A stretch of DNA of 64,000 nucleotides from an uncultured Candidatus Peregrinibacteria bacterium (GCA_937858825.1 CALMAI010000002.1:2759-66758); one strand, 5' to 3'. Positions 8,956 through 43,368 are shown, counted from the first letter of the stretch. Notes: generated from the letters alone by a model not told the origin. Made by a program: numbers and translations.

Positions 8956-11900
8956 TTAGGCTTCCAGCTCTTTTTCAAGCTCTTCTGCTTCTGCGATCTC
9001 TTCTTCTGTTGGTTCATCTTCATCAGATTCTGACTCGTCGTCAGCTGGGAGCTCTTTTTCACTCATGGTTTCTGGATCGACCCCTTCTTTTTCAAGGTTT
9101 TCGGCCAGATTCTCATCGAGCTCGTCTTTTTCGCTGACTGAATCTTTCATTGCTGCTTCTTCTTCCAGACTTTGTTCAATGGTGTACTCTTCTTCTTCGC
9201 TGGCAAGCATTTCTGTTTTATCAGTCTGAAGGAGTTTTACACTGAGTCCAAGACTCTGGAGCTCTTTCACCAAGACGTTGAACGATTCTGGTGTTCGAGG
9301 TTTCTTAATGGTTTCACCCTTCACAATAGATTCGTACGCTTTGGCACGACCATAAACGTCATCGGACTTAATGGTGAGCATTTCCTGAAGTGTGTGAGCC
9401 GCTCCGTAAGCTTCGAGCGCCCATACCTCCATTTCTCCAAAACGCTGTCCTCCATGTTGGGCTTTACCTCCGAGTGGCTGTTGTGTCACCAATGAGTAAG
9501 GTCCAACTGAACGCGCGTGGATCTTGTCTTCAATCAAGTGGCTGAGCTTCATGATGTAGGTAATACCAACGGTTGTTTCTCGGTCGAACTGTTCTCCAGA
9601 GAGACCGTCGTAGAGGCGTACTTTTCCGTGTGTTGGGAGTTCAGCTTCTTTAAGGAGTTCGGTAATTTGTGCTGGGCTAATACCGTTCAATGCTGGTGTA
9701 GCAACGGTGATTCCCATTTTCTTGGCTGCCCACCCAGCATGTGTTTCCAGGATCTGACCAATATTCATACGGCTGGATACACCGAGTGGGTTGAGGATGA
9801 TGTCGACTGGTGTTCCGTCAGGCATGAATGGCATGTCTTCCTGTGGAACGATAATCGAGATAACACCCTTATTTCCGTGACGTCCCGCTACTTTATCTCC
9901 AATAGAGATTTTTCGGGTTTGAGCCACGTTAACTTTAATTTGTTGGTTTACACCGGTTGGGAGTTCGTCTCCGTTCTTTCGTGAGAAGATCTGCACGCCG
10001 ACGACTTTTCCTCCTTCACCTCCTGGGAGGCGGAGAGATGTGTCTTTGACGTCGCGGGCCTTGTCTCCGAAGATGGCGCGGAGGAGGCGTTCCTCTGCGG
10101 TTAGTTCTGTTTCTCCCTTTGGAGTAATTTTACCAACAAGAATGTCTCCTTCGTGCACGGTTGCACCGATTCGAATGATTCCGTTGTCGTCCAAATCTTT
10201 CAATCGGGCTTCACCAACATTTGGGATGTCTCGAGTAATAACTTCCGGTCCAAGTTTGGTATCACGCATGTCGATGGTGAATGTTTCGATGTGAACAGAA
10301 TCGAAGATTCCATCTTTCACCACACGGTCTGAAATGATGACCGCATCCTCGAAGTTGAATCCCTGCCATGACATGTATGCCACGAGAAGGTTTTGTCCGA
10401 GCGCTACTTCACCCTTGTCGGTTGCAGCACCGTCAGCAAGAATGTCTCCACGTTTTACTTTTTGTCCTTTCACAACGAGTGCTCGCTGATGAATACAGGT
10501 TCCCTGGTTACTTCGTTGATATGTATGAAGTTTGTAGGTGGATTTCTTACCGTTTTTGTAGAGCACAACAATCTGTTCCGCATCAACATACGAGATGGTT
10601 CCATCTTCTTCGGCGAGGACTACTTGTCCGCTGCTCTTGGCAGCCAACTCCTCCATACCGGTTCCTACTACAGGAGCTTTTGGAGAGATGAGCGATACTG
10701 CCTGACGTTGCATGTTTGAACCCATGGATGCACGGGTATTGTCATCGTGCTCAAGGAATGGAATCAACGCGGTTGTTTCTGAAATAATCTGTTTTGGAGA
10801 GACGTCCATGTGGGTTGCCTCTTTTGCGTCGATTACTGTCGCTTCGCTATCGACACGGGCGGATACTCGTGGAGTCATGATCTGTCCAAGTTTGTCGAGT
10901 TCGGTATTGGCCTGAACGATTACGAGATCTTTTTCTTCGTCGGCGTCGTAGTATTTGATGTCATCCTTTACATATGGAATGACTGGAATTTCGTCGAGGC
11001 CAGATTTTTCGAGTTGTTTTGCGAGTTTTTCGTCGATAACGGTTCCAGTTTTAGCAAGGAGTTTTCCTTTTGAATCTTTCACTGGGGCTCCAATAGTTCG
11101 TCCTTCGAGCTCAGAAGCTTTTGCTGGAGCGGTTTGTTGTACCTCGCGGAATGGAGTTTCAATAAATCCGTATTCGTTTACACGAGCGTAGGTTCCAAGG
11201 TGGACAACAAGTCCAATGTTTGGTCCTTCTGGTGTAGAAATAGGACAGATACGACCATAGTGAGATGGATGCACGTCACGAACGTCAAACGATGCACGTT
11301 CACGTGAAAGTCCACCTGGTCCCATCGCAGAAAGACGACGTTTGTGGGCCAGTTCCGCAAGTGGATTGGTCTGGTCCATGAACTGTGACAGCTGTGAGCT
11401 GGCAAAGAATTCACGGAGTGCCGCTGTTATTGGACGAGAGTTCACCAATTGGGTTGGTGTCACGGTCTCAAGATCCATAACGGTCATACGGTCTTTTGCA
11501 ATTCGGTCGGTTCGAAGAAGTCCCACGCGGAACTTGTTCTGTACCAGTTCTCCAACGGCACGAACACGTCGGTTTGAGAGGTGATCGATGTCGTCTGGTC
11601 GTTCTTGTCCGTTGTTGAGTTTGATCAAGTGCTTGAGGATGTAGACCAAATCAGAAACCTGGAAAGTGTGATTCTCTTTCTTGTTTGGCACATCGATTTG
11701 GAAGCGCTTGTTGAGTTTGTATCGCGCTACTGGTCCCATGTCGTATTTTCGATAGTCGAAGAACATGGACTGGATGAGTGACTTGGCATTTTCTGGTGTT
11801 GCCAGGTCTCCTGGGCGGATTTTCTTATAAATGTTTTGGTATGCTTCATCTTCTGTCTTGGCACCGTCTTTATCCAATGTGTTTTGGATGAAATCTTTTT

Positions 11901-32497: not shown

Positions 32498-33013
32498 ATG
32501 CGAAAAAAGCCTGTTAAAGTTGTGGTGAACGATCTAATGCAGACCGGTTATTCGTATTTGCTGGTGGAGCCGGAGGGGAAGAATTTTGATCCAGAATTTA
32601 AACCGGATTTAACGCCCAAGCAGATGCTGGAGATGGGGATTTTTGGCGGAAAGTACATGACGGATTGCAAGAAGGAGTTTCCGGCTTCGTGGTTTGCGAA
32701 GGCGAAGCTCTGCCATGAAAAGCATGACGCGAAGCTGAACTTTTTTGGGGTGAACGCGTCGAAGCCTTTGAGTTATTGGGTGAAGAAGGGATGGATTTAT
32801 CCGGAGGATCCGCGCGGATGGTTTCAATGGTATTGCCGTTATTACATGGGGAGGCGTATTCCAGAGGAGGATGCGCGGCAGATTAAGCGGTGGAAAGCCA
32901 TGACGCGTCACATTGCGCAGGTGCGGAAAAATTGCACGGCGGGGGATTTGTTGTGCCGGCCGCGCCAACGGCAGGCGCTTTTGCACTGGGCGTATGATAG
33001 CCGGAAATTTTAG
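32498..33013 (+). CDS. conserved-looking hypothetical protein (Trp/Arg-rich)
   Basis: 171 aa with distinctive blocks GIFGGKYMTDC, DPRGWFQWYCRYYMGRR and DARQIKRWKA. I cannot name a family from memory. Confidence 0.5.
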   Translation: MRKKPVKVVVNDLMQTGYSYLLVEPEGKNFDPEFKPDLTPKQMLEMGIFGGKYMTDCKKEFPASWFAKAKLCHEKHDAKLNFFGVNASKPLSYWVKKGWIYPEDPRGWFQWYCRYYMGRRIPEEDARQIKRWKAMTRHIAQVRKNCTAGDLLCRPRQRQALLHWAYDSRKF

Positions 33014-33327
33014 GAGTTGACCTTCTTTTTTTTGTCGACTTTGAGGATTTTTACTTCTAGTTGAAGCTTTTTGCCAAGTTTTTCTTTGGCGATTTCAACG
33101 TCGTAGTGATTTTGGAGGTTGAGCCAAAAATCGGTGCTCATATTGAAGTATCGACCCAGACGTAGAGCTGTGTCTGCGCTCATGGCGCGTTTGCCATGAA
33201 CGATTTCGTTTATGCGCCTCGGTGGGACGCCAATGTCTTTGGCTACACGGTACTGGCTGAGGTTGAGGGGTTTCATGAACTCTTCGTTGAGGATTTCGCC
33301 GGGGTGGGGGATGTGAAGCTTTTTCAA
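33010..33327 (-). CDS. higA: HigA-family antitoxin (XRE HTH)
   Basis: HPGEILNEEFMKPLNLSQYRVAKDIGVPPRRINEIVHGKRAMSADTALRLGRYFNMSTDFWLNLQNHYD is canonical HigA. TTG start. Confidence 0.85.
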   Translation of the reverse strand: MKKLHIPHPGEILNEEFMKPLNLSQYRVAKDIGVPPRRINEIVHGKRAMSADTALRLGRYFNMSTDFWLNLQNHYDVEIAKEKLGKKLQLEVKILKVDKKKKVNS

Positions 33328-33605: not shown

Positions 33606-34382
33606 CTATTTGAGGTTCTCCAACTCCTGCAAATAGAGGCTCAACTCTTCGGTGTCTTCTGGGCTGAGTGGAGGTGGTTCTGGCGCGTCCAGGCAGGCTT
33701 TAATGTCCTGGAGGGTTTGTTCAATCCAGCTGTCGTCGCCATCGTATTCCAGGATGGTCATGTTAAAGGAGAGGACGCCGGTTTGGCCGGTTGGGTCTGC
33801 GGAGTCCATGAATCCGGGTTTGGATTTATCGCCGTTGGCGTAGACAAAGTAGGCTTTTGAGTTCACGGTGAAGCCGTTTTGGCGGAGCAGCCATTGGTAG
33901 ATTTCGGCCTGGCGTTTGTAGGCCTGTTTGTATTCGTCGTCCAGGCTGGGTTCTTTTTCGGTGGAGGTGGATTTGTAGTCGACCACGTGGATCTCTTGTT
34001 TGGGGTTGATCCAGATGTCATCCACGGCTCCGGTAATGAGCAGGTTGGTGGCTTTGTGGTGCGTCTGGACTCCCTCAAAGTTGGCGCGCCAGGTTTCCAG
34101 ATCTTCGTGCTGAAAGGGGATCGCGTTGATCTTGTATTTGGTCATGAGTGGGTGCGGCTTCTGTTGGTTTCGGTATTGATCGAACTCGTTTTTCAGCAGT
34201 TGGTCCACGGCCGAATTGAGCGTGAAGGCCGGCATGCCGGGCAGACTGATGCCACGGCGGCGATCCAGATAGAAGAGATGCGGCGACTTGAGGAAGAGCT
34301 CAATCTTCGACCGGCTGAGCTTGTATGGATGGTCCGGGTCGGCGTTGAGGGTGGGGTCGTAGATGTTGCGGGATCGGGGCAT
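33606..34382 (-). CDS. PD-(D/E)XK nuclease (Cas4/RecB-like fold, no Fe-S cysteines)
   Basis: SRSKIELFLKSPHLFYL (N-terminal helix), GAVDDI (motif II Asp), VVDYKS (motif III D-x-K), QAEIYQWL (QxxxY). Last gene of the R-M operon. Visibly GC-rich. Confidence 0.65.
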   Translation of the reverse strand: MPRSRNIYDPTLNADPDHPYKLSRSKIELFLKSPHLFYLDRRRGISLPGMPAFTLNSAVDQLLKNEFDQYRNQQKPHPLMTKYKINAIPFQHEDLETWRANFEGVQTHHKATNLLITGAVDDIWINPKQEIHVVDYKSTSTEKEPSLDDEYKQAYKRQAEIYQWLLRQNGFTVNSKAYFVYANGDKSKPGFMDSADPTGQTGVLSFNMTILEYDGDDSWIEQTLQDIKACLDAPEPPPLSPEDTEELSLYLQELENLK

Positions 34383-34387
34383 GGGGG

Positions 34388-34762
34388 TTATTTAATTGTT
34401 CCTTCTTTTTTTGCTTTTGACATCAGTTTATTGAGGTCTTTTGCAGGGATTATTGGGCAAAATTGTCCCCAGACCCATTTCCCTTTTCTATTTCCATTTT
34501 TTCCAATCATGAAATATCCAATTCTATATACAATTTTTCCTGTTTTGTTACCGTCTTGATGAGTAATTTCCCCTTTAGTCGATGAGAGTCGTAGTCTTTC
34601 AAGAAGGAGGACCTTTTCCTTAATGGTTGATTCGGGCATGAATGTCCATGCTTCACGGGTATATATGTGCCAACCTTTTCTTCCAATGTCTTTCATTCGT
34701 ATTGGTTTGGCCTTCTTAAATTGCTCGTTTTTTCTCTGGATGAATTGTTGGAGTGTTTCCAT
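34388..34762 (-). CDS. hypothetical protein (orphan, 124 aa)
   Basis: Lys/Gly-rich ORF between hsdR (25-nt gap) and the PD-(D/E)XK gene (5-nt gap). No motif recognised. Confidence 0.5.
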   Translation of the reverse strand: METLQQFIQRKNEQFKKAKPIRMKDIGRKGWHIYTREAWTFMPESTIKEKVLLLERLRLSSTKGEITHQDGNKTGKIVYRIGYFMIGKNGNRKGKWVWGQFCPIIPAKDLNKLMSKAKKEGTIK

Positions 34763-34787: not shown

Positions 34788-37106
34788 TTAAGTTGTGGTT
34801 TTGTGCTTTGAGTAGAGTGTTTTTTGAAAATTGAAGAATACAGCTCTAATTTTTGTTACATCACCGAGTTTATCTTGTGCATCTGCAATGGCGTGATATT
34901 TGAGATTTAGGAGTTTTGGTAATTTTTCCTCATCGAGTTCATCAACACCAGCTTCAATATATTGAGATAGTACAAATTCGATGAATTCTATTTCGTTGTC
35001 ATTCAATCCTTTGTATATGTTACTTCTTGATTCATCTACACGTTCGCTGCGTGTAATAGGCTGACTTGCAAAGGCAACGTAGGCTAATACATCAAATAAA
35101 TCGCTTTCGTCGGCATTTATAAGATGTTGGAGACTTTCAAGTTCTTCCTTTCCATAGCCAAGTTCGGAAATTCGTTGTAAAAATGCTTTTCGAGTTGTTG
35201 GATTTGACCATATTTGTCGTAGTTCAGCTTCATTTTTGAAAAATGTGGGAAGGTCGCCGTAAAGGCTTTGGAGGAACTCTTCTGCGGAGATAGGTTTTCC
35301 ATCGGCGCTCCAGAAGGAAGTCGAAATCATGTGTTGTATTTCTCGTTCTTTTCCGTCTCTCAGTTTAATTTTGATTTTTTTCGGTCTTTTTTTGGTTTCT
35401 TCCTCAGGTTTTAATTCTTTTTCTACCTTTTCGTGCGCTTCTTTTACTTTTCTTGGCTCTTTTTCTATTGTTTCATTGAGTGGTTCACCATCCCATTCAG
35501 GATCGTTAAAATGATGATATGCATTAACGAAGTCTAAGATGGTAAAGAACTCCTTTCCGTCAAAGAGTCGTGTTCCACGTCCAACGATCTGTTTGAACTC
35601 AATCATGGAGTTTACAGGTCGCATGAGAACTATATAGCGAATGTTTCGGGCATCAACTCCGGTTGATAGTTTTTGTGATGTGGTAAGGATTGTTGGAATG
35701 TTTTTCTCATTATCCTGAAAATCTCGTAAATACTGTTCTCCTCGGGCTCCATCGTTGGCGGTTACTCTTACACAGTAGTATGGATTTTTACTTTTGGCAT
35801 ACTGATTTACTAAGTCGCGAACAGCTGCTGCGTGCTCTTGTGTAGCGCAAAAGATAATGGCTTTTTCGTCCTCATTCATTTCATTTAAAGCAATTTGGAC
35901 TCTCTTTGCTTCACGCTCTTTGATCTCAATAATTCGATTGAAATCCTCTTCCTGATAGATTTTTCCTTCTTCTACTTCACCTTCTATGAGTTGGTCATCG
36001 GAAGTGTACATATATTCGTCGAGGGTGGTTTGGATTCTTCTGACCTTAAATGGTGTTAAGAATCCATCATTGATACCTGTTTTGAGCGAGTAGGTGTATA
36101 CGGGTTCTCCAAAGTATCGATATGTGTCTACGTTGTCTTTTCGCTTTGGTGTTGCGGTTAATCCGAGTTGAACAGCAGGGGAAAAGTGTTCCAAGATCGC
36201 ACGCCAGTTGGATTCGTCGTTGGCTCCTCCTCGGTGACATTCGTCAATAATGATGAAATCGAAGAAGTCAGGATTGTATTCACCAAAATATGGGCTTCCA
36301 TTCGGTCCGCTCATAAAGGTTTGGAAGATGGTGAAGAAGATGCTGCCGTTTGTTGGGACCGAACCCTTCTTGCGAATGTCGAGGGGCTTGATTCTCACCA
36401 TGGCATCTTCTGGGAAGGGAGAAAAGTTATTGAAGGCTTGATCTGCCAAGATGTTACGATCAGCAAGGAAGAGTATGCGTGGTTGGCGGCCGCCGTCTCG
36501 ATTTAAGTTCCATCGTGAGTGAAAGAGTTTCCAGGCGATTTGAAAAGCTATAAATGTTTTTCCTGTACCGGTTGCCAGGGTTAAGAGTATTCGCTCTTTT
36601 CCGTCTGCGATGGCATTGAGTGCTTTGTTGACGGCAATTTCTTGATAGTAGCGTGGTTTTTTGGTTCCGCTTTTGTCTTCAAAGTGTATAGCATCAAATT
36701 TTGCTCGCCATTCGTTCGATTTAGCATTGATTCTATTCCAGAGTTCCTCTGGGGTAGGGAAGCGATCAACAAGACCTTCATCTCCATTCATTGCTATTTC
36801 ATAAATCTCTTTGCCATTGGTGCTATAGGTGTATTCAAGGTGGAGCTTGTCAGCATATGCTTTAGCTTGGGCTACTCCTTCAGAGACTTCAAGTTCATCG
36901 CTTTTTGCTTCAATAACGGCAATTTTTTGATTTTTGTAGACTAAAACATAGTCAGCGATTTCTGGCTTTGCTCGAAGACCACCGGTTTGTATTTTTCCAT
37001 CGGTAATGCGGTATTCGCGGAGTATTTTTGAATCTTCAACTTCACCCCAGCCAGCTTCTTTTAGTTTTGGGTCTATATACTCAGCTCTGGTTTCTGCTTC
37101 GTTCAT
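34788..37106 (-). CDS. hsdR: Type I restriction enzyme, R subunit
   Basis: MNEAETRAEYIDPKLKEAGW (HsdR N-terminal nuclease region), helicase motif I LATGTGKT, motif II IIIDECHRG, motif VI QIVGRGTR. Confidence 0.92.
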   Translation of the reverse strand: MNEAETRAEYIDPKLKEAGWGEVEDSKILREYRITDGKIQTGGLRAKPEIADYVLVYKNQKIAVIEAKSDELEVSEGVAQAKAYADKLHLEYTYSTNGKEIYEIAMNGDEGLVDRFPTPEELWNRINAKSNEWRAKFDAIHFEDKSGTKKPRYYQEIAVNKALNAIADGKERILLTLATGTGKTFIAFQIAWKLFHSRWNLNRDGGRQPRILFLADRNILADQAFNNFSPFPEDAMVRIKPLDIRKKGSVPTNGSIFFTIFQTFMSGPNGSPYFGEYNPDFFDFIIIDECHRGGANDESNWRAILEHFSPAVQLGLTATPKRKDNVDTYRYFGEPVYTYSLKTGINDGFLTPFKVRRIQTTLDEYMYTSDDQLIEGEVEEGKIYQEEDFNRIIEIKEREAKRVQIALNEMNEDEKAIIFCATQEHAAAVRDLVNQYAKSKNPYYCVRVTANDGARGEQYLRDFQDNEKNIPTILTTSQKLSTGVDARNIRYIVLMRPVNSMIEFKQIVGRGTRLFDGKEFFTILDFVNAYHHFNDPEWDGEPLNETIEKEPRKVKEAHEKVEKELKPEEETKKRPKKIKIKLRDGKEREIQHMISTSFWSADGKPISAEEFLQSLYGDLPTFFKNEAELRQIWSNPTTRKAFLQRISELGYGKEELESLQHLINADESDLFDVLAYVAFASQPITRSERVDESRSNIYKGLNDNEIEFIEFVLSQYIEAGVDELDEEKLPKLLNLKYHAIADAQDKLGDVTKIRAVFFNFQKTLYSKHKTTT

Positions 37107-37145: not shown

Positions 37146-37982
37146 TTATGCCGTTTCTTTTTTTATAATCATCCTTATTGAGGCATGATACGTAGCTAAA
37201 TAGAAATGGAATATCCAGGAATACCAGATATTTAAATCATAATTGCTTTTTTGCTTCGGATCATGATGTCTTATAGCAAAATTATTTGCAATATTAAACA
37301 AAGCTGCTTCATCTTTTTTGTTTAATATACTATCAAGTTTTTGGGATTTCTTGAGCCATTCAAATACATCCGCGAGTTCTTGAATAGCTTTTTTTCTCTC
37401 TTCTAAAGAAGATTTTCTGTTTTTCCATATTGATAAGGCATTGACTACTTTTCTATCAACATTTACTGCATCATAAGGAACAATGTCTGCATTCAAAATA
37501 AACTGCAGTCCATGCTCACCAAGAGATATGATTTCCCCCTCCTCTGTTAGTTCAAACCCATTTTTATAATCGAGTAAGAAAAAATTGGCATATTCTCTAA
37601 ATTCATTACGCCCTGTTAGTTCATCATAAGAGTCATAATCTTGATAATTCCACCCTGTTGGAGTTATCATGTCAACTAACTCACCAGGCTTAGAAACGTG
37701 ATCAAATAGGAACTCAATACATGAAAAGATATTTTCTTCATTTATATCTTGGGGATTCCATTCATCTATAGGAAATGGGGAGAAATTGAGTTTAATTGCT
37801 GCTATTCTCATTATGCTTTCTGGCACCCATTTTGTGTCTGATTCGTGGGAATTTATTTTCGCTTTTTCTTTTAAAAAGTCTTTTTCCCGGAATAAAAAAT
37901 AAAGATTTTGCAGTTTTTCATAGAGCTGATCTATTGAGATTTTCTGTTGATTATTACGAGATGCGAAATATTTTCTAGTCAT
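37146..37982 (-). CDS. hypothetical protein (orphan, 278 aa) nested between hsdS and hsdR
   Basis: Uninterrupted AT-rich ORF with a 9-nt gap from hsdS and a 39-nt gap to hsdR. No P-loop, no Rx4-6H HEPN motif, no TM segment, no family recognised. Confidence 0.6.
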   Translation of the reverse strand: MTRKYFASRNNQQKISIDQLYEKLQNLYFLFREKDFLKEKAKINSHESDTKWVPESIMRIAAIKLNFSPFPIDEWNPQDINEENIFSCIEFLFDHVSKPGELVDMITPTGWNYQDYDSYDELTGRNEFREYANFFLLDYKNGFELTEEGEIISLGEHGLQFILNADIVPYDAVNVDRKVVNALSIWKNRKSSLEERKKAIQELADVFEWLKKSQKLDSILNKKDEAALFNIANNFAIRHHDPKQKSNYDLNIWYSWIFHFYLATYHASIRMIIKKETA

Positions 37983-37991
37983 CGCTTTGTG

Positions 37992-39161
37992 TTAGAGTTT
38001 TCCAGTAAATGCTTGATGCAGAATTGATTGTTTGAGTTCTTCCAGGTTGTTGAGTTTTTGTTGGTATAGAGATTCAATTTTTTTTGTATTTGTTGATAAT
38101 TTATCAAATGATTCAACAATTGATTTTTGTTCAGAAATTTCAGGCAGATGTATTTCAATAGAATTTAGCGAAGCCTGGTTAAGTTTAGGCTGAGCCATAC
38201 CACTAATATAAGATACTAGATTAATTGAGTTTAAGTAATATTCTACAAATTTCTGTGTTATTTTCTTTTTAAATTTTAGTACATGTGCATGGTTATTAAC
38301 CCAAGTTTTTCCACTGATTGAGAAGGCAATGGGATAAGTTCTTGCTAACAGGTTTGCGCCATCTTCTGAAATAAGTAATAAATCTTCGTCAAAAATGTAA
38401 TCATTAACATAATCAACAATGCCAGAAGCACCATAGTATGGAAAATCTCCATTAATTCTATCTTTTTTAGTTATAGGTATCCTTTTCCTGTCTAAATTTT
38501 CTGCAATTTCCCCAAGTTGTTGCTTGGCCCAATCGTTGTCAGGATTGTGAATCCTATCCTTCAACCAAGATTCAAAAAGCTCTTTCGAATTTTTTAAATT
38601 TTTTTTAGTGTTTTCATTGGCTTTTTCTATTTTTTCAAAAAGTTCATCAAGAAGTGCGACGAGGCGTTTTTGCTCGAGGAGGGGTGGAAAGGATATGGTG
38701 AAATTTTTAATAAATTCTTTTGATACCCTTTTATGACCAGCCGCACCCCTCATATTTTTGGATCCTTCCTCTCGAAATTTTTTAGTAGATAAAAAATAGA
38801 AAAGATATTCTGGTAATAAATCATCATTTGTCCTAAAAACAACATATTCACTTGATCCAAAACCAATCCCATTCTTTAAATTTTTTGCAATCCCGAGTTT
38901 TCCATTCTCAAAACATGGTGTAATTTTCGCCATTAGTACATCATCATCTGCAAAATATGTATAACTTTCCACGACTTCTTTGAGTTTTTTTGTTTGGCTT
39001 AAGTTAAGATTCTTATTCAATATTCCGAGATCCTCCATTGGCACAAATGAAACAACATCGTTGTCATTAAGCTTCTTTCGCGCCTCACTTTTTGGTGGTT
39101 TAACAATGCATATCTCTCCCAATTTTTTAATCTGCCAATTATTCATGATTAAATAATTCAT
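37992..39161 (-). CDS. hsdS: Type I restriction enzyme, S (specificity) subunit
   Basis: Two target-recognition domains separated by the conserved helices LLEQKRLVALLDELFEKIE and EQKSIVESFDKLSTNTKKIESLYQQKLNNLEELKQSILHQAFTG. Confidence 0.88.
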   Translation of the reverse strand: MNYLIMNNWQIKKLGEICIVKPPKSEARKKLNDNDVVSFVPMEDLGILNKNLNLSQTKKLKEVVESYTYFADDDVLMAKITPCFENGKLGIAKNLKNGIGFGSSEYVVFRTNDDLLPEYLFYFLSTKKFREEGSKNMRGAAGHKRVSKEFIKNFTISFPPLLEQKRLVALLDELFEKIEKANENTKKNLKNSKELFESWLKDRIHNPDNDWAKQQLGEIAENLDRKRIPITKKDRINGDFPYYGASGIVDYVNDYIFDEDLLLISEDGANLLARTYPIAFSISGKTWVNNHAHVLKFKKKITQKFVEYYLNSINLVSYISGMAQPKLNQASLNSIEIHLPEISEQKSIVESFDKLSTNTKKIESLYQQKLNNLEELKQSILHQAFTGKL

Positions 39162-40911
39162 TTATTTTTTTAAAAAGTGGTTCAAAATTTTCAAAATCTG
39201 CTTTATTCAGTTTAAAAAGTTTTTTCCACAGTGTCCCTTTAGCATTTATTTTCACAATTTTTTTGCCACCGCTTGGTTCATATTCTCCACCATGGGCTTT
39301 TATTGAGGTAAGCACGGAATCTTCAAAAAGGTGTTCCAAGGTTAAGTAACTGTGAGTATAAGTACTATCAGCATAATCATTTCGTGAAGGGGGAACTGGA
39401 ATTAATAAGCTATAAAAACAGTTATAGTTTTTTCGTTTCCTGAAAAGACAATCATTTTTATTTCCTTCAATTTCTTTCCATCTTATTTTATTTAAACCAT
39501 TAAAATTATTGAAACCATCATCAAAATCAAAAATCCCAATTACTCCGGAATTTTTATATTCTTCCATGTTTGCTAAGTCTAAAAATTTTTGCAATTCATC
39601 TCTGCCGCCTTTCCCATATATATGGAAATGAGATTTTTCTTGAAAGAGCTTTTCGAAATTATCTTTATTACAAGCAATTTCATTTATCTTAAGCCAAGCA
39701 ATTTTATATATCTCTTTTTTAGTGTCTTCTATAAAAACCGTGTGCTTTTGTTTTTTTAACTCATGCCCAAGGTGCTCACTCAATTTAGAGTACATTTCTA
39801 AAATTCCGACTTCTTTTTCAAGCTCATCAGTATCATTTTCAAATTCCGGCCCTTTTATTGTTCTTTGTTCCCAGTTAATCAATCCAATTTGAGAAACATT
39901 CTTTTCAATTTTTACTCTGTAAGAGCTTATATTTTCTCCTTGTAGAGAGATGAAAGGGAAGGCGTGCGAAGTAATGAAAATCTGTTTTTTTTCTGCATAC
40001 TTAACAAAGTCTTGTGCAAGCTCAAAACAGCGCAACGGTTCATATGAGTTTTCAGGTTCTTCAAATCCCCAAATTATCTTCTTACGTGAATTCCTAGAAA
40101 TTTCATTAAGAATATCGGGGATAAAGCGTGCCTGAATACCATCACCCCTATCAAATAAGGATACTTCATTGTCAGTTGTGACTCCAAGTGTCCTAAAGAA
40201 ATCTAAGAGTGTATCAGGTATGCTAAATCGTGCTTGGATACTTGTGTTACTTCTAAACTCTTCAAAAAGTTTGATGGTTTGATCTTTCAAAAGATCGTTG
40301 AATTTTGAAGAGTGCGTTTTAAAAACATTTTGTTCTTTTTTGTCTTCTTTTTCGAACAAGTGCTTTTGCAGTTTCTGAAAAAGAAAATTAAAAAACTGTC
40401 TGTCTTTTACTGCTGGAATATATTCATACTGAATATTATTGAGAAACATAGTTAGTCTGCCTTCTTGCACATGTTGGTATTTGTGTTTATGCTTCTTTAC
40501 ATCTGAATTGCGTTTGGGATGCAAACCATTTTTGTCCCAAGTTTTTTCGACAAAAAAACGTTCTGGTAGCACACCTTTTTTATCGTTGTAAAAATGTATT
40601 TTGATTTTGACCCAAAGATCTTTTTGGCGAACATCTGTTTTTGGAGCTGCTTTTCTTTTGCTTTGCGCTTTAGCGTCACTTCTGGCTTTAAGTACTTTTG
40701 ATAAATCTCTGTTTATATCGAACTTAATACCAGGTGTAACTTCGTCATTAAAAAAAAGATTCAGGGCTCTTAATATATTTGATTTACCAGAATCATTTGC
40801 ACCGGAAAAAATATTCAAATCTCTTAAATCAATAACTTCAACTTTTGGTTGTTTTACGCCACCATCAAAGGATCTGAAATGTTTTATAACAATTTTTTCA
40901 ATAATCTTCAC
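39139..40911 (-). CDS. ABC-type (AAA_15/21-like) ATPase with putative Toprim/DUF4435-like C-terminal domain (OLD-family or fused-PARIS-like)
   Basis: Walker A GANDSGKSN, signature-like DRGDGIQ, Walker B KIIWGFEEPE, H-loop ITSHA. The C-terminal ~190 aa carry an E...DxD pattern (VFIEDTKKEIY ... IGIFDFDDG). The start overlaps the hsdM stop by 4 nt, and the stop overlaps the hsdS start. Confidence 0.75.
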   Translation of the reverse strand: MKIIEKIVIKHFRSFDGGVKQPKVEVIDLRDLNIFSGANDSGKSNILRALNLFFNDEVTPGIKFDINRDLSKVLKARSDAKAQSKRKAAPKTDVRQKDLWVKIKIHFYNDKKGVLPERFFVEKTWDKNGLHPKRNSDVKKHKHKYQHVQEGRLTMFLNNIQYEYIPAVKDRQFFNFLFQKLQKHLFEKEDKKEQNVFKTHSSKFNDLLKDQTIKLFEEFRSNTSIQARFSIPDTLLDFFRTLGVTTDNEVSLFDRGDGIQARFIPDILNEISRNSRKKIIWGFEEPENSYEPLRCFELAQDFVKYAEKKQIFITSHAFPFISLQGENISSYRVKIEKNVSQIGLINWEQRTIKGPEFENDTDELEKEVGILEMYSKLSEHLGHELKKQKHTVFIEDTKKEIYKIAWLKINEIACNKDNFEKLFQEKSHFHIYGKGGRDELQKFLDLANMEEYKNSGVIGIFDFDDGFNNFNGLNKIRWKEIEGNKNDCLFRKRKNYNCFYSLLIPVPPSRNDYADSTYTHSYLTLEHLFEDSVLTSIKAHGGEYEPSGGKKIVKINAKGTLWKKLFKLNKADFENFEPLFKKINELFNHE

Positions 40912-42371
40912 AATTTTTGTCTTATAGAGAGTAAAATTTTATCGGTCTTTTTATCTAGCTTCTCAATCTCTTTCAAAATCTCTTTTGGCTCTCGTAAAGT
41001 CACCTCGTCGTTGCTATTTGGGTTTCGTACTGATAGATCAAAGGTTTTTGTGTTGAGGTCGGCGACGTTTACAGTCCATGAATTCTCTGAAGCAGATTTT
41101 GTTTTGTGGAGTTCTACAAATTCGGCTAAATCTTTTTCGTTTAAAGGATTGGTTTTGCCGAGGTTGCGGCCTGGGTTGAGTTGGTAGTACCATATTTTTT
41201 TTGTTGGTTCACCTTTGGTAAAAAATAAAACGATGGTTTTTACCCCTGCACCGCTAAAGGCACCTCCAGGAAGGTCAAGTATTGTGTGGAGGTTGCACGT
41301 TTCAAGGAGATATTTTCGAAGTGAGACGTAGGCATCACCGGTAGAGCCATTAGAAAGGAATGTATTTTTTATAACAATGCCAGCTTTTCCGCCTGCTTTA
41401 AGATGTTTAATAAAGTGCTGTAAGAATAAAAGAGCGGTTTCTCCTGTTTTAATAGGGAAATTTTGTTGAACCTCTTTGCGTTCTTTGCCTCCAAATGGTG
41501 GATTGGCTAGAATAACGTCGAATCGATCTTTTTCTTGAATGTCTGCTAAATTTTCGGCAAGAGTGTTGGTGTGAATGATGTTTGGTGCTTCAATTCCGTG
41601 GAGAATCATGTTCATGATGCCAATGATATAGGCAAGTGATTTCTTTTCTTTACCGTAAAAGGTTTTTTTCTGGAGGGTCTCGATATCTTTGGTTGAGAGT
41701 TCTTTGCTTTTCATCAAGTATTCAAAGGCTTCGACTAAGAATCCTGCGGAGCCAACAGCGCCGTCATAAATAGTATCCCCGATTTTAGGAGCAACAACTT
41801 TTACAATGGTTTTAATGAGAGGACGGGGTGTATAGTATTCACCTCCATTGCGTCCGGCATTGCCCATGTTTTTAATTTTTGCTTCGTAGAGATGGGAAAG
41901 TTCATGTTTCTCCTTTTGGGACTTGAATCTGAGCTCATCAACGATGTTTAAAACTTCGCGGAGGTTATATCCGCTTTGAATTCTGTTCTTGAGTTGGCTA
42001 AATATTTCTCCAATCTTGTATTCGATGGTGTCGGCACTCTCTGCAGATTGTTTGAATTTTTTGAGATAGGGGAAAAGGTCATTATTGACGAAATCGTGAA
42101 GATCATCTCCCGTCATTGCTTTGTTGTGGTCTATTTTGTCGTCTGATGTTTTTGGGACAGCCCAGTTGTGCCATCGAAATTTAGTTGCAATGATATGGGT
42201 GTAGGTTCCTTTCCCTGCCAGAGCTGCTTCGGTTTTTCTTTCTTGTTCTAGATCTTCGAGGTACTTTAGGAAGAGGATCCATGAAGTTTGTTCTACATAG
42301 TCAAGTTCGCTACTACAACCAGCATCTTTCCAGAGGACATTATCAATGTTTTTGAAAGCTTGTTCGAACAT
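40908..42371 (-). CDS. hsdM: Type I restriction enzyme, M (N6-adenine methyltransferase) subunit
   Basis: HsdM N-terminal domain (LWKDAGCSSELDYVEQTSWILFLKYL), SAM motif I DGAVGSAGFL, catalytic NPPFGG. Confidence 0.93.
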   Translation of the reverse strand: MFEQAFKNIDNVLWKDAGCSSELDYVEQTSWILFLKYLEDLEQERKTEAALAGKGTYTHIIATKFRWHNWAVPKTSDDKIDHNKAMTGDDLHDFVNNDLFPYLKKFKQSAESADTIEYKIGEIFSQLKNRIQSGYNLREVLNIVDELRFKSQKEKHELSHLYEAKIKNMGNAGRNGGEYYTPRPLIKTIVKVVAPKIGDTIYDGAVGSAGFLVEAFEYLMKSKELSTKDIETLQKKTFYGKEKKSLAYIIGIMNMILHGIEAPNIIHTNTLAENLADIQEKDRFDVILANPPFGGKERKEVQQNFPIKTGETALLFLQHFIKHLKAGGKAGIVIKNTFLSNGSTGDAYVSLRKYLLETCNLHTILDLPGGAFSGAGVKTIVLFFTKGEPTKKIWYYQLNPGRNLGKTNPLNEKDLAEFVELHKTKSASENSWTVNVADLNTKTFDLSVRNPNSNDEVTLREPKEILKEIEKLDKKTDKILLSIRQKL

Positions 42372-42535: not shown

Positions 42536-42781
42536 ATGCAAAAATTCTATGTCTACCTGGTCCGGTGCAGTGATGACACGTTGTATTGTGGGTACAGTAC
42601 GAATGTGGAGGCTCGGGAAAGGGCGCACAATGAGGGGAAGGGGGCGAAGTATACGCGGGCGCGGTTGCCGGTAAGGGTGGTGTATAGTGAGGAGTTTGCG
42701 ACTCGGTCGGAGGCGCAGCAGCGGGAATACGCGATTAAGAAGCTGACGCGGAAAGAGAAGGAGGAGTTGATTGAGGGGTGA
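42536..42781 (+). CDS. GIY-YIG nuclease-superfamily protein (UPF0213-like)
   Basis: FYVYLVRCSDDTLYCGYSTNVEARERAHNEGKGAKYTRARLPVRVVYSEEF is the GIY-(x10)-YxG-R-E-N core. Confidence 0.8.
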   Translation: MQKFYVYLVRCSDDTLYCGYSTNVEARERAHNEGKGAKYTRARLPVRVVYSEEFATRSEAQQREYAIKKLTRKEKEELIEG

Positions 42782-42918: not shown

Positions 42919-43128
42919 ATGACTCTTTTGCAAGTAAACATTGAAGATGATCTGAAGGAGGCAATCCAGAAAAAGGCGAAGGCCTATGGGGTTTCTGTGA
43001 GTGCGATTGTTAAGATTGTCTTGGCTCGATCATTTATGATGGATGGAAGGCCAGGCAATGTTTTTAATGCTGATCGTGATAATAAAGGTAAAGGGTTACC
43101 TGTTGATGATTTAATAGATGCCCTGTAA
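42919..43128 (+). CDS. ribbon-helix-helix antitoxin (RelB/CopG-like)
   Basis: 69 aa. LQVNIEDDLKEAIQKKAKAYGVSVSAIVKIVL fits an RHH fold. The stop abuts the start of a RelE/ParE toxin (TAAATG). Confidence 0.6.
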   Translation: MTLLQVNIEDDLKEAIQKKAKAYGVSVSAIVKIVLARSFMMDGRPGNVFNADRDNKGKGLPVDDLIDAL

Positions 43129-43368
43129 ATGCCTGATAAGATAACGAAGTTTGTTAACGCTCTTGATGCCAAGACGCGGAAGCGATTGAAGGAACGTTTA
43201 AAGAGCTTGAGAGAGAACCCTTTGGCTCGATCTCAAGATGTGAAGAAGCTGAAGGGATGGGGAAAGAATACTTACCGTTTGCGTATGGGAGACATTCGGA
43301 TTATTTATCGATTGAATGACAGCAAGGTGGCGATCATCGATATTGATTTTCGAGGAAATGTTTATTAA
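43129..43368 (+). CDS. RelE/ParE-family toxin
   Basis: 79 aa. ...LKGWGKNTYRLRMGDIRIIYRLNDSKVAIIDIDFRGNVY is the RelE/StbE C-terminal pattern. Confidence 0.8.
   Translation: MPDKITKFVNALDAKTRKRLKERLKSLRENPLARSQDVKKLKGWGKNTYRLRMGDIRIIYRLNDSKVAIIDIDFRGNVY

Follow-up and report, generated by a model that had tools for sequence, protein, structure and literature searches.

The window analysed here is a stretch of 64,000 nucleotides (nt) from an uncultured Candidatus Peregrinibacteria bacterium (GCA_937858825.1 CALMAI010000002.1:2759-66758), and the subject of the analysis is a gene on its minus strand (39139..40911; GTG start, TAA stop) that encodes a protein of 590 amino acids (aa) and lies inside a type I restriction-modification (R-M) operon. 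The list of open reading frames (ORFs) and the family alignment define the product as a fusion of an ATP-binding cassette (ABC) ATPase with a Toprim-like domain. The protein is identical to a 590-aa ATPase on record on three contigs, and more than 2000 full-length homologues were found at E ≤ 1e-3. These homologues, together with ATPase and C-terminal residues that are invariant in 52 sequences of 42-70% identity, exclude a chance ORF, and the reading frame is therefore a real gene.

A fused ATPase gene inside a type IB restriction-modification operon

All genes of the operon and all parts of the 590-aa protein described below are on the minus strand. Upstream of the ATPase gene lies hsdM (40908..42371; 487 aa), identified by the Pfam families N6_Mtase (5e-63) and HsdM_N and by PADLOC MTase_I (1.7e-161), and downstream of it lies hsdS (37992..39161; 389 aa, or 384 aa from ATG 39146), identified by two stretches of Pfam Methylase_S (4e-39) and by PADLOC Specificity_I (1.3e-159). 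These are the flanking genes that an earlier reading of the DNA, made from the sequence alone, had named. They are followed by orf278 (37146..37982; 278 aa), which matched no Pfam or NCBIfam family, and by hsdR (34788..37106; 772 aa), whose product is of the EcoAI type (type IB), scoring 845 bits against NCBIfam NF046051, for which the cut-off is 550, and matching Pfam ResIII, Helicase_C and EcoEI_R_C. The order on this one strand is hsdM–ATPase–hsdS–orf278–hsdR, and ORFs of 124 and 258 aa come next. Since an hsdR of the EcoAI family is present, the type IB operon around the ATPase gene is complete, with HsdM, HsdS and HsdR co-oriented.

Both ends of the ATPase gene overlap hsd genes, as the sequence-only reading had observed. 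At the upstream junction the end of hsdM (...AAA TTG TGA) runs over the start of the ATPase gene (GTG AAG ATT) in a 4-nt GTGA overlap. At the other junction the hsdS start codon lies within the 3' end of the ATPase ORF, 23 nt inside if ATG 39161 is used and 8 nt inside if ATG 39146 is used, the latter being the start chosen in a gene call made independently for this stretch of DNA (L001). The same 4-nt overlaps with hsdM and hsdS recur in close relatives belonging to the window protein's own clade. The ATPase gene is transcribed together with the type IB R-M genes and is probably also translationally coupled to them.

The G+C contents of the ATPase gene (31.8%), hsdS (32.0%) and orf278 (32.1%) are lower than those of hsdM (39.9%), hsdR (40.8%) and the window (45.1%), which suggests that the operon centre (37146-40911) is an exchanged cassette. 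Scans of the window with Rfam and for tRNA genes gave no matches. A scan for promoters and terminators found fewer sites than in shuffled sequence and was uninformative, with the sole exception of a terminator-like hairpin (33576-33560), the only one on the minus strand in 33-43 kb, located past the last gene of the cluster.

Residues 1-345 (39877..40911) are an ABC ATPase of the OLD/AAA_15 type, as concluded from Pfam, from PADLOC AriA and from a Foldseek comparison of the full-length structural model. The Pfam matches were AAA_15 (3.2e-14), AAA_21 (5.9e-9) and AAA_23, with SMC_N below threshold. The four ATPase motifs that had been quoted by the sequence-only reading (GANDSGKSN, DRGDGIQ, KIIWGFEEPE and ITSHA) are present at the places given for them, and the Pfam AAA_15 and OLD-family Foldseek matches agree with that assignment. 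In the alignment of 52 sequences, K43 and S44 of the Walker A motif GANDSGKSN (residues 37-45; 40777..40803) are invariant, as are D257 and Q260 of the ABC signature-like DRGDGIQ (residues 254-260; 40132..40152), E284, E285, P286 and E287 of the Walker B motif and D-loop, IIWGFEEPE (residues 279-287; 40051..40077), and H316 of the H-loop ITSHA (residues 313-317; 39961..39975). In the AlphaFold2 (AF2) model the ATPase domain carries a helical insertion of low confidence at about residues 172-256.

The best PADLOC match of the ATPase was AriA (residues 4-316, 1.8e-13, 49 bits), a match that is generic for AAA_15/21 proteins, and short matches to GajA, HEC-01A, NsnB and Old, with similar scores, and to the retron I-B ATPase-Toprim came next in the P-loop region. 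No PADLOC model scored the ATPase at the level of a true family member. When the full-length AF2 model (predicted local distance difference test score, pLDDT, 80) was compared with the PDB, the top Foldseek entries were Eco8 OLD (2.8e-15), GajA and the Thermus scotoductus OLD protein (6P74; 1.7e-13), and the alignments to OLD-family proteins spanned 520-600 columns, against about 400-460 for the lower-ranked SMC, Rad50 and PtuA-type heads, an advantage of about 100-150 columns over the SMC heads. The ATPase is followed by a linker (residues 346-386; 39754..39876) which, according to the AF2 model and the alignment, consists of a short beta element and then a long helix (361-386). In relatives of 650-680 aa this linker is longer by 60-80 coiled-coil-like residues (alignment columns 430-590).

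The C-terminal domain and its predicted active site

Residues 387-590 (39142..39753) are most likely a divergent nuclease domain of the Toprim type, with the Toprim of retron Ec67/Eco2 as the nearest detectable relative, as indicated by PADLOC, NCBIfam, hhalign and the AF2 model, and the domain identity of the protein is proposed with high confidence. The PADLOC model RT-Toprim_I-C (reverse transcriptase-Toprim, retron type I-C) matched the window protein at 1.1e-6, and the six models of this group matched 15 of 42 diverse relatives, the best at 9.5e-11. The remaining PADLOC matches of the domain were sporadic among these relatives (mad4 in three, best 2e-4; AbiLii in one, 0.011; AriAB in one, 0.028). 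The only NCBIfam family to match the C-terminus was NF038237 (retron_Ec67_fus, retron Ec67 family RNA-directed DNA polymerase/endonuclease; 6.3e-7), with residues 424-589 aligned to positions 402-571 of the 572 in the profile; the match thus begins only past beta1, and its score is 28 bits where the family cut-off is 450. The same family matched 11 of the 42 relatives, the best at 8.6e-10. Weak matches to Pfam Toprim families were also seen among the relatives, namely OLD-like_TOPRIM in six (best 0.0085), Toprim_2 and Toprim_4 in two each, and Toprim and DUF3226 in one each.

For comparison with class 1 OLD proteins, a Toprim profile was assembled from ten sequences, P2 Old and nine diverse plasmid homologues. 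hhalign of the family profile against this OLD profile gave a probability of 74% (E 2.7e-5) over 68 columns, in a register that pairs E395 with the Glu of the OLD VEG motif, the GKGG following strand 2 with GKG of OLD, and D462-x-D464 with the DxD. The signal was usable only once the OLD side was this ten-sequence profile, as the probability was 19% against the single P2 Old sequence and 7% for the full-length profile against P2 Old. Furthermore, the AF2 model of the domain alone (pLDDT 93.7; predicted template modelling score, pTM, 0.90) shows the order that a Toprim core should have, beta-alpha-beta-alpha-beta-alpha-beta, in which E395 comes immediately after strand 1 and the DxD immediately after strand 3.

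The sequence-only reading had noticed a Glu...DxD pattern at this end of the protein and had considered it compatible with either an OLD-type Toprim or a DUF4435 (AriB-like) domain. The pattern is indeed present, as FIEDTKKEIY (E395, D396) and IGIFDFDDG (D462, D464). A Toprim assignment agrees with the RT-Toprim_I-C, NF038237 and hhalign results. The DUF4435 option was abandoned, and with it membership in PARIS through AriB, since DUF4435 matched neither the window protein nor any of the 42 relatives at E ≤ 1, AriB gave no match, and AriAB gave the one listed above.

Conservation of the candidate catalytic residues was counted over 277 aligned domains of relatives. E395, the predicted Toprim catalytic Glu, is located at the end of beta1 with D396 beside it (39724..39729) and is present in 277/277. 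In the DxD motif at the end of beta3 (D462-F-D464; 39520..39528), which aligns to the DxD of OLD proteins, D462 is found in all 277 and D464 in 276, the other having Glu. The motif T524-L-E526 (39334..39342) has the form [S/T/E]-x-E and would correspond to S513/E515 of Eco2, which bind metal B; E526 is again present in 277/277, and the correspondence is based on the order of the motifs and on the NF038237 match. K558 (39238..39240), a candidate catalytic Lys comparable by analogy to Eco2 K562, is conserved in 248 of the 277.

In Eco2 the Toprim is an RNase that cuts tRNA and requires E374, D378, D460, D462, S513, E515 and K562; mutation of these residues abolishes defence, and mutants in the catalytic acidic residues also lose RNase activity (PMC12405507, PMC12916289). 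The conserved residues of the present family run parallel to those of Eco2 in order, with E395 in the place of E374, D462/D464 of D460/D462, T524/E526 of S513/E515, and K558 of K562. The predicted two-metal active site would thus be formed by E395/D396, D462/D464, T524/E526 and K558.

Distribution of the domain and genomic contexts of its carriers

An exhaustive search with domain-profile hidden Markov models (HMMs) over 1.84 billion representative proteins identified the domain in both bacteria and archaea. At least 847 clusters, formed at 50% identity, passed E ≤ 1e-3, and 510 of them also passed E ≤ 1e-10. Most carriers are about 600-680 aa long, with an AAA_15 ATPase in front and the domain at the C-terminal end. 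The domain also occurred behind a PtuA/AriA-like AAA_21 ATPase (P0232, P0245 and P0264), behind a NACHT NTPase (P0261, 991 aa), and behind N-terminal regions of about 370-830 aa that matched nothing in Pfam or PADLOC (P0214, P0222, P0223, P0211 and P0138), and the HMM libraries also place it behind the reverse transcriptase of retron I-C. Because one domain occurs on ABC ATPase, NACHT, reverse transcriptase and other N-termini, we regard it as a portable, putative effector module. Four of the proteins with unmatched N-terminal regions (P0214, P0222, P0223 and P0211) were considered as retron RT-Toprims and rejected, since they had no RVT or PADLOC match.

Further-off ATPase homologues of similar length also bear unannotated C-termini. 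In one of the loci examined (L055, 10001-11962), an ATPase gene whose product is 37-40% identical stands at the corresponding place of a type IB operon with HsdM 73% and HsdR 70% identical; its C-terminus was missed by the domain HMM and by Pfam, yet it retains ICED...DRDG...NEIEN, so that the nuclease end at this slot appears either to have evolved very fast or to have been replaced. Homologues from Peribacteria, from a metagenome-assembled genome of the Patescibacteria group and from Gracilibacteria (L004, L008 and L054; matches from position 10001 or 3606) stop after about 16 codons when read with translation table 11 and align over their full length by tblastn. Early stops combined with full-length alignment fit UGA recoding, and these genes are therefore probably intact.

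Genomic contexts were examined in 72 loci obtained by scanning one genome per species and in four contigs with precomputed Pfam labels, and the neighbours were labelled by tblastn, by iterated HMMs seeded with the Hsd proteins of the window, and by a Pfam scan of 144 neighbour proteins. Thirty-two loci were informative, with at least 3 kb on both flanks, and 13 of these 32 lie inside type I R-M operons. With T for the ATPase gene and x for a further gene, the arrangements were M-[T]-S-x-R (the window, L002 and L088), M-x-x-[T]-x-S-x-R (L006 and L089), M-S-[T]-(x)-R (L015, L016, L022 and L090), R-[T]-M-S (Archaeoglobus and L035) and S-[T]-M (L052). The embedding R-M systems belong to at least three families; in L089 and L090, HsdM is 26-27% identical to that of the window and HsdR is HindI-like rather than of the EcoEI_R_C kind. 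HsdR was found in every R-M-embedded relative whose contig is long enough. In a neighbour-joining tree, the embedded members fall into at least six clades and are interleaved with non-embedded ones. The link to type I R-M is therefore frequent, recurrent and facultative.

Outside R-M operons the commonest neighbours were integrases, RhuM, TIR, Mrr, Fic, RadC and AbiEii, and no recurrent partner gene was found across 42 loci. The non-R-M loci are thus defence-island-like contexts without a fixed partner.

Within the clade of the window, HsdM and HsdR remain 70-85% identical while the ATPase falls to 67, 43 and 37%, and the slot between hsdM and hsdS that holds the ATPase gene is kept in five related type IB operons. 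The gaps between hsdM and hsdS and between hsdS and hsdR of related type I operons hold further genes, including Mrr_cat, RhuM, HTH_24, DUF6088 with AbiEii, and several of no known family (L002 9053-9970; L006 2621-4098 and 6220-6900; L088 9956-11632; L089 5746-6988; L090 9203-12290). The variety of genes inserted in the same gaps indicates that type I operons act as insertion hotspots for defence-like cargo.

Related systems, proposed function and alternatives

That modules of an ABC ATPase and a Toprim are embedded in restriction loci is already known. RloAB is such a pair within the type I R-M locus of Campylobacter jejuni (PMC10802264), and OLD-ABC+TOPRIM modules are pervasive in BREX and R-M-like loci, where they have been read as backup suicidal effectors (PMC12839542). 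What is new here is the particular fusion family, the occurrence of an Eco2-type Toprim beyond retrons, and the extent of the linkage to type I R-M.

Retron Ec67/Eco2 (type I-C), the closest detectable relative of the C-terminal domain, has the same order of residues (E, DxD, [S/T]xE, K) and likewise tethers a nuclease to a regulatory domain in a single chain. Unlike the retron, the window protein has an ABC ATPase at its N-terminus and no RVT match, and Rfam detected no msr/msd RNA in the window. Class 1 OLD proteins (P2 Old and Thermus scotoductus OLD, 6P74) share with it the chain of an N-terminal ABC ATPase and a C-terminal Toprim, the length of about 590 aa and the lack of a helicase partner. 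The window protein differs from them in having VED instead of VEG and in the loss of the acidic residue four positions after the catalytic Glu (+4), and its gene lies in an R-M operon and is not prophage-borne; sequence similarity to P2 Old is marginal. Of the likeness to class 1 OLD nucleases or to a single-chain PARIS that had been proposed from size and layout, the OLD architecture is retained, whereas the closest nuclease is the Toprim of Eco2 and not that of P2 Old or PARIS.

A helicase partner of the UvrD/PcrA type is the mark of class 2 OLD proteins and Gabija. The window gene has hsdM and hsdS as its neighbours and no UvrD-like one, so no class 2/Gabija partner is present. Membership in Gabija as a GajA protein was rejected, as the PADLOC GajA match covers only about residues 1-70 and no adjacent GajB helicase was found.

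PARIS shares the pairing of an OLD-type ABC ATPase with a Toprim, and its AriA is the best PADLOC match of the ATPase; the two-protein AriA + AriB form differs from the single chain of the window, and fused AriAB forms of PARIS exist. AriA/AriB senses the anti-restriction protein Ocr, and the AriB Toprim cuts tRNA (PMC10802264, PMC10802454). RloA/RloB and the lactococcal AbiL system (AbiLi/AbiLii) also combine an ABC ATPase with a Toprim/OLD-like nuclease module, but as two genes rather than one fusion. Membership in these systems was rejected, since RloB (PF13707) gave no match and AbiLii matched a single one of the 42 relatives (0.011).

PrrC, encoded by prrC inside the type IC R-M operon EcoprrI, and RloC also join an ABC-type NTPase to a C-terminal nuclease. 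The anticodon nuclease (ACNase) domain of PrrC is not a Toprim. Membership of the window protein in PrrC/RloC was rejected, as no AAA_13 match was obtained at E ≤ 0.01 and the C-terminus fits Toprim models, and the resemblance to PrrC is therefore one of logic and layout and not of homology. PrrC and EcoprrI form a physical association, and the R-M enzyme keeps the nuclease latent until a T4 anti-restriction peptide triggers it (PMC1484252). The R-M linkage of rloC, unlike that of prrC, is facultative (PMC3458546), and in this respect the window family is rloC-like.

The position of the gene also recalls MADS, in which an ATPase with a further domain lies between the methylase and specificity genes; the order there is mad2 (methyltransferase)-mad3 (ATPase)-mad4-mad5 (specificity), and defence, though not methylation, depends on mad3 and mad4 (10.1101/2023.03.30.534895). 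Membership in MADS was rejected, because the MAD3 model NF047739 gave 15 bits (0.0094) against a cut-off of 420, mad4 matched three of the 42 relatives with a best value of 2e-4, and the mandatory mad6-8 are absent. Unlike MADS, the window operon is a canonical type IB R-M system with its own HsdR.

We propose, with a probability of about 0.6, that the protein works on its own as a single-chain ATPase-nuclease of the OLD-like class and has been taken up as a backup for type I restriction. In the proposed mechanism, the N-terminal ABC ATPase would act as sensor, regulator and gate, and the C-terminal Toprim of the Ec67/Eco2 type would be the toxic effector nuclease. The ATPase, self-oligomerisation or possibly the methylase core of the R-M system would hold the nuclease latent, and it would be released upon sensing a phage cue, plausibly a restriction-disabling protein, as with PrrC and PARIS. 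Cleavage of nucleic acid, host or phage, by the released enzyme would abort the infection, and the module would serve as a second line that fires once the first defence fails. The gene, its domains and motifs, their conservation, the layout and the recurrent R-M linkage are observed features of the family; latency, trigger, substrate and a role in defence are inferred by analogy with systems that share its parts.

A defence role is probable. As to the substrate, RNA, and tRNA in particular, is favoured on the precedent of Eco2, the tRNA-cutting nuclease that is the nearest characterised relative; the preference is limited because the whole-protein structural neighbours (OLD, GajA and Eco8 OLD) are DNases, and RNA is accordingly put forward tentatively, at somewhat less than even odds. 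A trigger tied to anti-restriction is doubtful, though conceivable. It is rather unlikely that the family is an independently evolved third 'restriction guard', that is, an OLD-ABC ATPase with an Eco2-type Toprim tRNase, co-assembled with the methylase/specificity core by way of translational coupling, held latent by that core and triggered by anti-restriction proteins. If this were so, the family would be a functional equivalent of PrrC–EcoprrI and of PARIS built from different parts, across many phyla and several families of type I R-M.

Several results weigh against the proposed backup role or against the nuclease assignment on which it draws. The C-terminal slice of the window protein matched no Pfam family even at E ≤ 10, with OLD-like_TOPRIM (PF20469) included. 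The PDB includes structures of Eco2, OLD, GajA and AriB. A Foldseek search of the confident C-terminal model against the PDB and BFVD, the check that the sequence-only reading had called for, returned nothing at E ≤ 1e-3, and the top entries were unrelated (HsdR of EcoR124I, 0.018, TM score 0.25). A profile hmmsearch of PDB sequences with two domain profiles gave zero matches at E ≤ 10, so that the Eco2 chains were not retrieved, and phmmer of the whole protein against the PDB found 6P74 alone, at 0.7. The Foldseek result clashes with the HMM-level homology to the solved Eco2 Toprim and is a failed confirmation, not evidence for a new fold; as the structure and PDB profile searches were null, Toprim homology rests on sequence profiles and motif geometry and not on a fold match.

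In addition, the canonical +4 Asp, a metal B ligand (D378 in Eco2), is absent from the window protein, which has K399 there, so that activity would depend on a substitution by D396. Such a substitution is probable in view of the covariation between positions +1 and +4 in the family: where +1 is Gly, +4 is acidic in 57/57, and where +1 is Asp, as in the window protein, +4 is acidic in 101/217. About 60% of the informative loci lie outside R-M operons, and R-M is therefore not required for function. The sequence-only reading had held that an independent OLD/Gabija-type gene, found mostly outside R-M contexts and not interacting with the Hsd proteins, would speak against its interpretation; most loci are indeed outside, yet with 13 of 32 inside the linkage is frequent without being obligate. 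Finally, the phage and plasmid collections that were searched contain almost no members of the family, and no full-length relatives were found in them.

It is unlikely, though it deserves the first place among the alternatives, that the protein is an independent DNase of the OLD/Gabija type, for which the R-M location would be a permissive, co-regulated hotspot and whose trigger would have nothing to do with restriction, candidates being nucleotide depletion, DNA ends and RecBCD inhibition. The best whole-protein structural matches, Eco8 OLD, GajA and the T. scotoductus OLD, are DNA-cutting enzymes; slots of related type IB operons hold unrelated cargo (Mrr_cat, RhuM, AbiEii, HTH and orf278); the G+C contents of the ATPase gene, hsdS and orf278 are 8-9 points under those of hsdM and hsdR; and many relatives stand alone. 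However, the nuclease domain is nearer to the RNase Toprim of Eco2 than to the Toprims of OLD or GajA, the share of loci in type I R-M operons (13 of 32, from at least six clades and three R-M families) is far above what is expected from co-location in islands, and the overlaps of start and stop codons at the hsdM and hsdS junctions are kept in close relatives.

It is improbable that the protein is a built-in accessory component of the restriction enzyme, similar to MADS, that would bind the HsdM2-HsdS core and contribute a methylation-sensitive cleavage, either additional or alternative. The slot between the methylase and specificity genes, with its overlapping frames, mirrors mad2-mad3-mad4-mad5 and is kept in the five related operons, the MAD3 and mad4 models give faint matches (0.0094, and 2e-4 at best in three of 42), and PrrC offers a precedent for physical association with an R-M enzyme (EcoprrI; PMC1484252). 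Against this, HsdR is complete here and in every R-M-embedded relative that could be checked, so that no nuclease is missing from the R-M system; the loci outside R-M, about 60% of those informative, have neither R-M genes nearby nor a conserved partner; the position in the operon varies (M-[T]-S, M-S-[T] or R-[T]-M-S); and the MADS HMM scores are far under their cut-offs (15 bits against 420).

As a last alternative, the C-terminal domain would have no catalytic activity and would serve regulation or binding on a housekeeping ATPase similar to RecF, RecN or SbcC, with no role as nuclease or in defence. This would accord with the lack of a significant structural neighbour, of a Pfam family and of the canonical +4 Asp in the C-terminal domain, but is scarcely credible given the conservation at the Toprim catalytic positions (E395, D462 and E526 in 277/277, D464 in 276/277, K558 in 248/277), the compensatory +1/+4 covariation, the homology to the proven nuclease domain of Eco2 (PMC12405507), and a patchy, island-like distribution beside integrases, toxin-antitoxin and R-M genes with no conserved housekeeping neighbourhood.

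If the protein is, as proposed, an ATPase-nuclease that backs up type I restriction, a large family currently annotated merely as 'AAA family ATPase' would be added to the OLD-like ATPase–Toprim defence nucleases, and the Eco2-type Toprim RNase module would not be bound to retrons but would also be joined to sensor domains such as ABC ATPase and NACHT. The frequent and phylogenetically scattered embedding of the family in type I R-M operons would provide a clean test case for the idea that restriction systems contain their own backup effectors, released once restriction has been disabled, an idea that has so far rested mainly on PrrC and PARIS, and the compact, translationally coupled operon described here would be convenient for such a test. 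The practical value is modest and lies in better annotation and in a candidate programmable or inducible RNase.

Other genes of the window may also be of interest. The orf278 gene, a member of the R-M operon, gave a faint PADLOC match to PDC-S32 (4.6e-4) and has more than 685 homologues, those listed being about 54-83% identical. Three sampled homologues stand alone, and two of these three lie beside MmeI-type R-M, SIR2-like and toxin-antitoxin genes. The orf278 gene may represent a so far unrecognised gene, either a single-gene defence or mobile cargo. A 277-aa gene between hsdS and hsdR in L089 was considered as its homologue and was found not to be homologous.

After hsdR, positions 33606-34762 of the minus strand encode the 124-aa ORF, which has no family, and a PD-(D/E)XK/Cas4-like nuclease (PDDEXK_1, 1.9e-10). 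Both may belong to the same transcription unit as the operon, since the only minus-strand terminator-like hairpin (33576-33560) lies just past them. The operon is flanked by small genes at 42919-43368 and 42536-42781 on the plus strand and at 33010-33327 on the minus strand. The flanking genes include a pair of a 69-aa ORF and a ParE-type toxin, as labelled by Pfam in a contig look-up, and candidate labels assigned by eye are HTH/HigA-like for a 105-aa ORF and GIY-YIG-like for an 81-aa ORF.

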